Of a stretch of 64,000 nucleotides of DNA, positions 34,385 to 36,238 are shown piece after piece. The notes beneath the pieces were generated by a model. It ran no database searches. It worked only from the letters and a program-made list of their open reading frames with translations, and was not told where the DNA came from. How positions within the stretch are numbered: the first letter of the stretch is position 1; every line of letters begins with the position of its first letter. Location of the stretch: positions 2,688-66,687 of the forward strand of contig DASXYZ010000002.1 of the NCBI GenBank assembly GCA_036502185.1. The letters run 5' to 3'. This stretch comes from Rhizomicrobium sp. GTDB taxonomy: Bacteria; Pseudomonadota; Alphaproteobacteria; Micropepsales; Micropepsaceae. Position numbers and translations under genes: made by a program.

Positions 34385-34458
34385 GGCCACGTGGCGGAGT
34401 GGTGACGCAGCGGTCTGCAAAACCGTTTACCCCGGTTCAATTCCGGGCGTGGCCTCCA
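34385..34458 (+). tRNA. tRNA-Cys (GCA)
   Basis: GGCCACG...CTGCAAA...GGTTCAATTCC..CGTGGCC-T-CCA; 74 nt. Confidence 0.96.
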
Positions 34459-34484
34459 AACCTTGCTGAAAGATTCACGCCGCA

Positions 34485-34500
34485 TTAACGTTTGCTTAAC
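34485..34500 (+). promoter_or_regulatory. CtrA binding box
   Basis: TTAA-CGTTTGC-TTAAC is an exact TTAA-N7-TTAAC; extra TTAA at 34502-34505; -10-like TAGATT at 34511-34516. Confidence 0.75.
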
Positions 34501-34520
34501 CTTAATCCATTAGATTGGTA

Positions 34521-34592
34521 ATCGTCTTCCCTTGAAGACACCCCACCATACCCAACCCCTTGGGGCCGGACCTCTCGCCCGGCCCCTTTTTT
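34521..34592 (+). ncRNA. Candidate small regulatory RNA (~70 nt)
   Basis: Promoter-like upstream region, hairpin GTCTTC-CCTT-GAAGAC, C-rich single strand, intrinsic terminator; no ORF. Confidence 0.55.
34562..34592 (+). terminator. Rho-independent terminator
   Basis: GGGGCCGG-(ACCTCTCGC)-CCGGCCCC followed by T6. Confidence 0.85.
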
Positions 34593-34647
34593 CCGGCGGT
34601 TAACGCCTATAGCCATCGCGGTTCGGATGCGCTAACAGGCACGCAGT

Positions 34648-34723
34648 TCCCCGGTAGCTCAGTCGGTAGAGCAAGCGGCTGTTAACCGCTGGGTCGCTGG
34701 TTCGAGTCCGGCCCGGGGAGCCA
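34648..34723 (+). tRNA. tRNA-Asn (GUU)
   Basis: TCCCCGGTAGCTCAG...CTGTTAA...GGTTCGAGTCC..CCGGGGA-G-CCA. Confidence 0.96.
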
Positions 34724-34725
34724 GT

Positions 34726-35415
34726 TTACGCTGCGATTCGGGCGACGAGTTCCGGGCCCTCATTGCGGACATTCCCGGCCGCTTTTGCCACGGGCCAGCA
34801 TTCCATCCGTTCGGCGGGGAACGCGCGCAGCAGCGCCTTGCGATCTTCGGGCGTGGCGAGCCATTTCGGCCAATCCTCGCGCGCCAGGATCACCGGCATC
34901 CGGTTGTGCACCGGAGCGCACAGTTCGTTCGGCTCGGTCGTCAGAACCGTGAAAGTTTCGAGTGCCGGCGAATCAGCCCTCGCGTCCTTCGCTCTCCACG
35001 ATTCCCACAGGCCCGCGAACGCAAATGGCTCGCGCTCGCGCGTGGTGATGAAATAAGGCTGCTTCCCGCCCACCCCGACCGGCGCCCACTCATAAAAGCC
35101 ATCCGCCGGCACAAGACAGGGCCGCGATTTGAATGCGCCGCGGAACATCGGCTTTTCCGCAACGGTTTCCGCCTTCGCATTGATGCAGCGCGACGCCGCC
35201 GATTCGTCCCTGGCCCAGCCCGGCACCAGGCCCCAGCGCATCATCGCGAGCTCGCGTCGCCCTACCCTGTCGAGCCGGATCACGATCCCGCCCTGCATCG
35301 GCGCGAAGTTGAATCGCGGCTGAAGGTTTGAGACCGGCGCGATGTAAGGCTCGGTAATGCCGTACAGCTCGACGAGCTCGCGCCAGGTAAACTGGTTGGT
35401 GAAGCGTCCGCACAT
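34726..35415 (-). CDS. SOS response-associated peptidase (SRAP/YedK/HMCES family)
   Basis: N-terminal MCGRF (catalytic Cys2), RWGLVP.W, INAKAET, ADGFYEW, HNRMPVIL. Confidence 0.92.
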   Translation of the reverse strand: MCGRFTNQFTWRELVELYGITEPYIAPVSNLQPRFNFAPMQGGIVIRLDRVGRRELAMMRWGLVPGWARDESAASRCINAKAETVAEKPMFRGAFKSRPCLVPADGFYEWAPVGVGGKQPYFITTREREPFAFAGLWESWRAKDARADSPALETFTVLTTEPNELCAPVHNRMPVILAREDWPKWLATPEDRKALLRAFPAERMECWPVAKAAGNVRNEGPELVARIAA

Positions 35416-35448
35416 GGTCCGAGGCGATGAACGGTCACTCAATCGGCA

Positions 35449-35886
35449 TCAGCAGCACGATAATGTGGCACAGCAGGCGCTTTGCAGTGACGATTCTGCA
35501 GCCGCTTCATCCTCGCCGTAGCTGGTCGCTTCGCCGAAGGTGAAGAAGGTTTCCCAGCGGATGCCGCTCGGATCGTTGATCCACGCCTTGTTCGATTGCG
35601 CGTAGCAGCAGGTCGTGGCTTCCTGGTCGCGGGTCTTCTCGCCGGCAGCCTTCAGCCGTCCCGCCAACTCGCGCAGTTCGCCGTCGGACTCGACCTGGAT
35701 GCCGAGATGATCGACCCCGGCCGTGCGGCTGCGCCGTGAGATCGCGAGATTGACCTTCGGGTCGTCCAGCATCCACTTCGCGTAATCGTCTTTCACGACG
35801 CTTGGCCGTGCGCCGAACAGCGTTTCGTAGAATCCGATGGATCTGTCGAGATCGTCAACGGCGATATGAACGTGCAGGCGCTTCAT
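35449..35886 (-). CDS. arsI: ArsI/CadI-family VOC metalloenzyme (putative C-As lyase)
   Basis: MKRLHVHIAV, YAKWMLDDP.VNLAIS, vicinal TTCCYA, DPSGIRWETF, Cys-rich tail. Confidence 0.8.
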   Translation of the reverse strand: MKRLHVHIAVDDLDRSIGFYETLFGARPSVVKDDYAKWMLDDPKVNLAISRRSRTAGVDHLGIQVESDGELRELAGRLKAAGEKTRDQEATTCCYAQSNKAWINDPSGIRWETFFTFGEATSYGEDEAAAESSLQSACCATLSCC

Positions 35887-36238
35887 GGCGCACTCCTTTG
35901 GCTGGCTTGCAACACCGGTTCGCGACCGCCACAAGCGGCGCGCAGATTTCTTCGCGCCCGGCGCAGCAATCCCTGGTCAGGTAAACCAGGAGATCGCTCA
36001 TGGCGGGAAAATCGACGGAATAGATGATCGACCGCCCTTGGCGCCGCGCGCGGATCAGCCCCGCGTTCGAGAGGATGAGGAGCTGCGCCGACATCGTGTT
36101 CGGCGGAGTGGCGAGCGTTCGCGCGATCTCGCCCGCGGGCAGTCCCTCCGGCCCGGCCCTCACCAGCAGCCGAAACACCTCGAGCCGGGCGTCCTGGGCC
36201 AGCGCGGAGAGGCGCTTGATGGCGTCGGTCAATTCCAT
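35855..36238 (-). CDS. arsR: ArsR/SmtB family repressor
   Basis: LSALAQDARLEVFRLLV.AGPEGL.AGEIA, LTRDCCAG..E.C arsenic-binding motif. Confidence 0.88.
   Translation of the reverse strand: MELTDAIKRLSALAQDARLEVFRLLVRAGPEGLPAGEIARTLATPPNTMSAQLLILSNAGLIRARRQGRSIIYSVDFPAMSDLLVYLTRDCCAGREEICAPLVAVANRCCKPAKGVRHEAPARSYRR

Follow-up and report, generated by a model that had tools for sequence, protein, structure and literature searches.

A putative small RNA gene under a CtrA box in Rhizomicrobium, likely orthologous to CCNA_R0032 of Caulobacter crescentus

The sRNA locus and the structure of its RNA

The DNA analyzed here is a 64-kb stretch from Rhizomicrobium sp. (order Micropepsales), referred to throughout as the window, and the element of interest occupies positions 34485-34592, between the transfer RNA (tRNA) genes for cysteine and asparagine. 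An initial annotation had proposed that a small RNA (sRNA) under the control of the cell-cycle regulator CtrA is encoded at this position, and the box, TAGATT hexamer, hairpin, C-rich tract and terminator that it described were all located at the positions it gave. Our analysis makes it likely that this segment is a self-contained sRNA gene, the Rhizomicrobium orthologue of the cell-cycle-regulated RNA CCNA_R0032 of Caulobacter crescentus (Rfam family RF01519), and that it acts by the mechanism proposed below. The locus is laid out as follows.

34385-34458, + strand: tRNA-Cys(GCA) (ARAGORN; Rfam tRNA, 65.5 bits), the upstream neighbour, outside the sRNA unit
34485-34500, + strand: CtrA box TTAA-CGTTTGC-TTAAC (TTAACGTTTGCTTAA at 34485-34499, then C34500), which starts 39 nt 5' of the first hairpin base and overlaps the -35 position
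34511-34516, + strand: -10 hexamer TAGATT, with A at hexamer position 2 and T at position 6
34524-34592, + strand: predicted sRNA unit of about 69 nt, with a predicted start at G34524 (+/-2 nt) and its 3' end in the T-run
34524-34539, + strand: 5' stem-loop GUCUUC-CCUU-GAAGAC, from the fold, beginning at the predicted +1
34538-34549, + strand: core ACACCCCACCAU, the presumed seed, which takes in two stem bases
34540-34559, + strand: C-rich tract ACCCCACCATACCCAACCCC, within an unpaired stretch of about 22 nt (34540-34561)
34562-34592, + strand: intrinsic terminator, with stem GGGGCCGG (34562-34569) and CCGGCCCC (34579-34586), 9-nt loop ACCTCTCGC and T6 (34587-34592)
34648-34723, + strand: tRNA-Asn(GTT) (ARAGORN), the downstream neighbour

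Both flanking tRNA genes thus lie on the same strand as the sRNA unit. A promoter and terminator scan of the window made no call at the sRNA locus because no -35 hexamer is present and the 9-nt terminator loop exceeds the scan maximum of 8 nt.

When the RNA from 34520 to 34594 (75 nt) was folded, its minimum free energy was -25.3 kcal/mol (z = -5.3), and none of 200 shuffled sequences was as stable. The fold consists of exactly two stems, and the C-rich tract is unpaired in both the minimum free energy and the centroid structures. Covariation across relatives, which the initial annotation had named as a check, was assessed in 26 distinct homologues found by a covariance model. In this alignment, which is fitted to that model and includes weak matches, 96% of the cells in paired columns were paired compared with 74% after shuffling, and two-sided changes were observed in 12 of the 14 pairs (four of six in the 5' hairpin and all eight in the terminator). 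In the 5' hairpin, 98.6% of cells were paired, and the covariation signal was lost when partner columns were slid. U-G wobbles in this hairpin, present in Caulobacter (GUCUUC/GAAGGC) and in a divergent locus from a class-wide sample (L198), keep the RNA helix and break the DNA palindrome. Since such wobbles spare the helix only, a role of the first hairpin as a DNA palindrome or operator is disfavoured.

Conservation in the RNA goes beyond pairing. The columns of the core ACACCCCACCAU are invariant or at least 90% conserved across orders (alignments A1 and A2), the hairpin arms and the core that follows them are conserved as sequence in most lineages, and the essentially invariant single-stranded core measures 12-16 nt. 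The initial annotation had found no open reading frame (ORF) here. Strictly, a single frame, of 23 amino acids, exists on the + strand, and one of 43 amino acids on the - strand was considered as well, but both are broken by 1-nt indels in close relatives. Because such indels fall within the single strand, as between CCAUACCC and CCAUUACCC among congeners, no ORF is conserved, and a small ORF was rejected as an explanation of the locus. At one of the homologous loci (L192:1501-1598), the terminator hairpin is found in tandem duplicate (GGGGCCACATTTCCCATGTGGCCCC, twice).

Distribution and kinship with CCNA_R0032

A BLAST search with 34520-34593 matched 19 of 24 genomes of the same genus at 83-95% identity, with both flanks diverging, and one of the 19 congeners carried a second copy that was 75% identical. 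The RNA is likewise present in the genome of R. electricum (L082). A search with a pattern made solely from the hairpin and the first C-rich bases extended to at least 120 public genomes. The genera among the matches listed are Rhizomicrobium, Caulobacter, Phenylobacterium, Aquidulcibacter, Hyphomonas, Hirschia, Hellea, Robiginitomaculum, Maricaulis, Oceanicaulis and Woodsholea, together with Micropepsaceae and unnamed alphaproteobacterial metagenome-assembled genomes (MAGs); the lineages among these listed matches include Micropepsales, Caulobacteraceae, Hyphomonadaceae, Maricaulaceae and others. A covariance model (R1) was built from 40 seeds taken from the pattern matches, including one RF01519-type Caulobacter sequence and one Phenylobacterium sequence. 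In the genome of the window, R1 gave a single match (85.3 bits, 34522-34592). In an even sample of the class, it detected the RNA in 22 of 401 genomes from about ten families, whose names were inferred and only where a locus was identical to a named record, and its matches include divergent forms that lie beyond the reach of the pattern. The initial annotation had described an independently promoted sRNA of about 70 nt with a box over -35, and this description is well supported by the conservation of its parts in more than 160 distinct copies from several orders.

In the Rfam scan that had been suggested alongside, only tRNAs were reported at gathering thresholds in the region of the sRNA locus. 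RF01519 was the best non-tRNA match to the window copy, covering 34529-34588 and model positions 1-58 of 58; its 18.8 bits (E = 0.083 for 551 nt searched) fall short of the cut-off of 35. Other sub-threshold matches, to suhB/mmgR and SorX, all fell far below their cut-offs; these and other Rfam matches were dropped, and only RF01519 survived follow-up. When the whole genome was searched with RF01519, no match was returned. The RF01519 model appears to have been built from Caulobacter alone, and in Caulobacter genomes the homologous locus is the single above-threshold match (36-95 bits). R1, in turn, finds every Caulobacter locus matched by RF01519 (28-67 bits, E <= 2e-5), including the NA1000-like locus L151 at 38.8 bits, and alignment A1 holds a continuous series of forms between the window copy and the RF01519 members. 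Since R1 links the window copy with the Caulobacter loci, the homology can be followed through intermediates.

In the supplement of Schrader 2014, CCNA_R0032 is given as a 66-nt "cell cycle regulated sRNA" of C. crescentus NA1000, and the transcription start site (TSS) of the next gene, tRNA-Asn CCNA_R0033, was mapped at 1,491,757 (Zhou 2015, PMC4287350). The coordinates of R0032 were moved onto a near-NA1000 genome (L151) by way of the tRNA-Asn promoter string, which has one mismatch there. The transferred 5' end coincides with the first hairpin G, and the 3' end lies inside the T-run. The locus match and the transferred coordinates together lead us to regard the window element as the R0032 orthologue. 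The initial annotation could not assign the RNA to a named family, and in this respect it is superseded: the element is a distant RF01519 member equivalent to CCNA_R0032. The mapped 5' end of R0032 also falls where the conserved -10 would place the start, in keeping with the start near 34521-34523 that had been anticipated. Judged by its sequence, then, the element is a genuine sRNA gene, and it joins an already described family as a new and distant member.

Both RNAs are encoded immediately before tRNA-Asn, in its orientation, and have a common layout, in which a 5' hairpin GUCUUC...GAAG(A/G)C is followed by ACCC(C)ACCAU and then by the terminator, with a CtrA-type box 38-39 nt before the hairpin. 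The stretch presumed to serve as the seed in R0032 pairing is ACCCACCAU. The two are similar in size (66 nt for R0032 and about 69 nt for the window RNA) and differ in the middle of the single strand (UACCCAACCCC in the window, CACUGACUUCC in Caulobacter R0032) and in the sequence of the terminator. The box is perfect in the window, whereas it reads TTAG-N7-TTAAC in the NA1000-like genome, and the window organism belongs to a different order.

Rfam lists RF01519 under the name 'CC0196', yet its matches adjoin CCNA_01375 and CCNA_R0033 (L151; NA1000 ~1,491,642), while the sRNA truly beside CCNA_00196 is CCNA_R0004, a different RNA; the Rfam name seems misleading. We rejected an identification of 'CC0196' with CCNA_R0004 beside leuC (CCNA_00196) because the R0004 promoter string (Zhou 2015) is absent from the RF01519 loci. 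These loci all sit before tRNA-Asn. R0138 was also considered as the identity of the RF01519 locus and proved wrong.

The alphaproteobacterial C-rich anti-Shine-Dalgarno sRNAs (AbcR, CcsR or 'cuckoo' type) are likewise short RNAs that combine an intrinsic terminator with a C-rich motif left unpaired. The window motif is ACACCCCACCAU, however, and not the CCUCCUCCC of that type, and no Rfam match to those families was obtained. CcnA (CCNA_R0094) of C. crescentus reportedly pairs through C-rich loops with G-rich stretches in the leaders of ctrA and gcrA; unlike CcnA, the window sRNA did not stand out for complementarity to these two leaders in its own genome. CcnA is non-coding, carries CtrA boxes in its promoter and has a level that tracks CtrA activity (Beroual et al. 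2022, PMC8959179), but it is located within the replication origin, is far longer and has no evident sequence kinship with the window element, which is a separate gene beside tRNA-Asn.

This kind of sRNA, the family in Rfam and the NA1000 annotation were already known, and CCNA_R0032 has figured since 2008 among the cell-cycle-regulated sRNAs of C. crescentus, a model organism. The searchable literature yielded no functional study of it. What the present analysis adds is a distant, below-threshold member from a different order, the breadth now seen in the family, a CtrA box that is nearly universal and fixed in its spacing, a seed that does not vary and the linkage to tRNA-Asn. The RNA is far more widespread than the Rfam model suggests, reaching several orders, and more than 160 orthologues are now on hand for comparative target prediction. 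In this genome, the result adds to the annotation a real gene that would escape automated pipelines.

The CtrA box and its promoter context

The full motif TTAA-N7-TTAA occurs once in the window, where 0.02 occurrences are expected from shuffled sequences, and the box at 34485 is thus indeed the only one, as had been noted by eye. The 3.14-Mb assembly (92% complete) contains 10 such sites, and 10 of 10 are intergenic by crude gene calls that leave little non-coding genome. The further TTAA noted beside the box is present at 34503-34506 but is not conserved, relatives reading CCTTAT, CCTTAG or CCTTAC at this position.

None of the homologue searches selected for the CtrA box. In the set of 164 distinct homologous promoters, 127 have the box intact, 35 depart from it at one position and 2 at two positions, and the box start always lies at -38 to -40 relative to the hairpin G. 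Conservation of the box and of the hairpins had been named at the outset as a point on which the proposal should stand or fall; the box has at most one mismatch in 162 of the 164 promoters, and both stems covary. Between box and hairpin only two columns are conserved, A at -11 and T at -7 (1.3 bits each), and these lie one base further upstream where the box starts at -39, as it does in the window copy. The spacing from box to -10 is constant among homologues while the other spacer bases drift, and about 99% of copies keep the box and the -10 at this fixed distance. Every Rhizomicrobium copy has TTAA-N7-TTAAC about 23 nt 5' of the hairpin, with freely varying bases in between. The geometry of the sRNA promoter can be summarized as a box from about -39 to -24 relative to the hairpin G and a -10 lying 7 nt before this G, with no recognisable -35 hexamer. 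The conserved -10 therefore places the transcript start at about G34524 and the box at the usual site of the -35. A sigma-54 reading of the GGCA that recurs between box and hairpin was rejected, as its spacing to any GC element is wrong.

In C. crescentus, full CtrA motifs with their 5' base near -35 are the mark of CtrA-activated promoters (Zhou 2015). The window promoter has in common with this class the TTAA-N7-TTAA motif, its 5' base near the predicted -35 and the lack of a canonical -35 hexamer, an arrangement that in Caulobacter leads to activation at the predivisional stage (Zhou 2015). Its predicted product is an sRNA and not a protein. Six non-coding RNAs are found among the CtrA-motif TSSs of Zhou 2015, and a passage of PMC5546546 cites Landt 2008 for CtrA-regulated sRNAs in Caulobacter. 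CtrA itself is encoded in the Rhizomicrobium genome (equivalog NF045991, 424.6 bits against a cut-off of 350), as is a ChpT-like protein that matches PF10090 and whose best NCBIfam matches are ChpT models, below their cut-offs. From the promoter geometry, its conservation and the presence of CtrA, we infer activation by phosphorylated CtrA, and CtrA control of the sRNA promoter is strongly implied.

CtrA also represses some promoters (Zhou 2015), and TTAA-N7-TTAAC could in principle serve repression here or be the target of some other regulator; in either case the RNA would not be activated by CtrA. We consider this very unlikely, given that the box stands where a -35 hexamer would be and no such hexamer is present, which is the geometry of the activated full-motif promoters of Zhou 2015, that this genome has extremely few TTAA-N7-TTAA sites, every one of them intergenic, and that it encodes a bona fide CtrA.

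The nine other full boxes in this genome (G000) are at C8:77925, C8:150180, C30:13101, C57:18207, C79:342, C79:443, C80:108966, C86:83771 and C86:98092. One of them lies 61 nt upstream of the gene for the ChpT-like histidine phosphotransferase, and further neighbours of these boxes encode a CHASE4 histidine kinase, a PilZ-methyltransferase protein, a DUF6600 protein and a fatty-acid desaturase. The set looks like a compact full-box CtrA regulon. The ctrA leader (G000 C8:133589-133918) contains five TTAA half-sites and no full box, which suggests autoregulation as in Caulobacter.

Linkage to tRNA genes and proposed function

The initial annotation had offered one alternative, namely that the terminator merely ends the tRNA-Cys transcript and that the piece is a functionless tRNA-Cys 3' trailer. 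On the 3' side of tRNA-Cys, from 34458 to 34562, no terminator was found ahead of the sRNA terminator by inspection of the window sequence, the promoter and terminator scan or the fold. Transcripts of tRNA-Cys very likely reach the sRNA terminator, and in this genome they probably end there. As an account of the element itself, however, the trailer is exceedingly improbable. A tRNA-Cys gene lies upstream in just 73 of 127 related loci, at distances of 66-3371 nt, and the Caulobacter and Phenylobacterium copies sit behind a protein-coding gene; because tRNA-Cys is so frequently missing upstream, the explanation fails. Moreover, a trailer would not hold a box and a -10 at fixed distance, nor a near-invariant 16-nt core, across orders, and the Caulobacter RNA is a discrete 66-nt species.

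On the other side, 131 of 136 distinct loci, the window and Caulobacter included, have a tRNA-Asn(GTT) gene downstream in the same orientation, with a median distance of 170 nt counted from the first hairpin base. This striking synteny could point to a cis-acting tRNA-Asn leader, in which the CtrA-box promoter drives cell-cycle-timed expression of tRNA-Asn through a leaky terminator and the short RNA is a by-product. In the window, moreover, no clear -35 and no convincing sigma-70-type promoter for tRNA-Asn was recognised in the sequence or by the promoter scan. We nevertheless regard such a leader as quite unlikely. Eight G-C pairs followed by U6 make for a strong terminator, and in NA1000 a separate TSS and promoter for tRNA-Asn have been mapped 50 nt beyond R0032 (Zhou 2015). 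In two genomes of one family (L198 and L201), tRNA-Asn is convergent with the sRNA, and paralogous copies of the sRNA (L020, L202, L205 and L206) are far from any tRNA. A leader would also leave the invariant unpaired tract unexplained. Across the loci compared, the fixed linkage to, and co-transcription with, a flanking tRNA that would characterize a trailer or leader ALTERNATIVES were not found.

The spacer between sRNA and tRNA-Asn (34594-34647) contains two blocks, CCTATAGCCAT and GGATGCGCTAACA, that are kept in the closest-matching congeneric locus (L002). They probably represent the tRNA-Asn promoter, with GCTAACAG as its -10-like element.

For the sRNA gene itself, we propose the following mechanism. 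Phosphorylated CtrA would bind the box and recruit RNA polymerase, and synthesis of the RNA would coincide with CtrA activity in predivisional and swarmer-type cells. Transcription would begin at about G34524, and the 5' hairpin would stabilize the RNA. The C-rich strand could then pair with G-rich sites (of the GGUGGGG or AUGGUGGG type) near ribosome-binding sites or start codons, and such pairing would change the translation or stability of the target messenger RNAs (mRNAs). This pairing is the weakest and least certain step of the proposal. A trans-acting function would be in keeping with the combination found here of a non-coding unit, its own promoter signature and terminator and an invariant unpaired core, and the pattern of constraint makes the RNA a strong candidate for a conserved riboregulator of the CtrA regulon.

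Near gene starts of this genome, the sites complementary to the seed over at least 9 nt were unconvincing, none being cell-cycle-related. The genes concerned encode an Ada/AlkA-like protein, a Tat-signal protein with a GGG dinucleotide-binding motif (apparently an FAD-dependent oxidoreductase), a secreted repeat protein and others. The gcrA leader ranked in the 2nd percentile, but by means of a heavily looped duplex.

It is also conceivable, though unlikely, that the locus encodes a real CtrA-dependent sRNA which does not pair with mRNAs and whose bound or titrated partner is a protein or some other RNA, for instance a tRNA precursor or a further sRNA. Hairpin arms that are conserved as sequence in most lineages, with an adjacent invariant stretch of 12 nt, are typical of a sequence-specific protein or RNA partner, and the one-genome scans yielded no mRNA target signal. 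Those scans were crude, however, and the succession of 5' hairpin, unpaired C-rich tract and intrinsic terminator is the standard layout of a base-pairing sRNA. In addition, no candidate partner protein is co-conserved beside the gene, the neighbours being tRNAs.

Several observations weigh against an R0032 orthologue that is activated by CtrA and pairs with mRNAs. First, the window copy misses the gathering score of RF01519 (18.8 versus 35 bits). Second, the box of the NA1000-like genome has one mismatch (TTAG-N7-TTAAC), a form that may be the reason why motif surveys passed R0032 over, and the TSS tables of Zhou 2015 hold no start site for R0032. R0032 is also outside the non-disruptable sRNAs of Caulobacter (Christen 2011, PMC3202797), so that any role it has would be non-essential in the laboratory. 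Third, read-through from tRNA-Cys could generate a constitutive precursor in this genome. Finally, a crude duplex-energy scan of 3285 translation-initiation windows in this single genome gave no excess over shuffled seeds, and in the same genome the leaders of ctrA, gcrA, ccrM, dnaA, hdaA, ftsZ and chpT are unremarkable.

A broader hypothesis, which we offer as possible but doubtful, is that the sRNA forms an ancient core post-transcriptional arm of the CtrA regulon in stalked and budding alphaproteobacteria (the Caulobacterales broadly defined, the Micropepsales and lineages near them), that ACACCCCACCAU controls a conserved mRNA of the cell cycle or polar development and that the tRNA-Asn linkage is functional. 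If so, the linkage might, for example, couple CtrA activity to the supply or processing of tRNA-Asn and would not be a frozen accident.

Some copies depart from the common arrangement. The second sRNA copy in one Rhizomicrobium genome (L020; G012:C3, ~1500-1571, - strand) has no adjoining tRNA, carries its own exact box TTAATCATTCATTAAC and has a diverged single strand ACACCUAUCAAUACCCGAUGAC; it is a predicted paralogue with a changed seed. Genome G264 has four extra copies away from tRNA genes (L202, L205, L206 and L207), three of which share another, sigma-70-like upstream region without a CtrA box and the seed ACAACCCACC. From these upstream sequences, the family can evidently be rewired to other promoters. 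The two loci of one family in the class-wide sample, L198 and L201, are divergent, with a longer or changed 5' hairpin (GUCUCG...CGAGGC and GUCUUC...GGGGAC), and have retained their boxes, TTAG-N7-TTAAC in L198 and TTAA-N7-TTAA in L201. Copies of the Hyphomonadaceae or another alphaproteobacterial type were found in a MAG labelled Azorhizobium (L026) and in one labelled Flavobacteriaceae (L040); these contigs are probably mis-binned or mislabelled.

In the window, tRNA-Asn is followed on its 3' side by an SRAP (YedK-type) gene (34726-35442, - strand) and a glyoxalase-family gene (35449-35934, - strand). In NA1000, CCNA_01375, annotated as a lactoylglutathione lyase and taken here as glyoxalase-family, lies just 5' of R0032. 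The glyoxalase-family neighbours in the two genomes may be a remnant of synteny or a coincidence.

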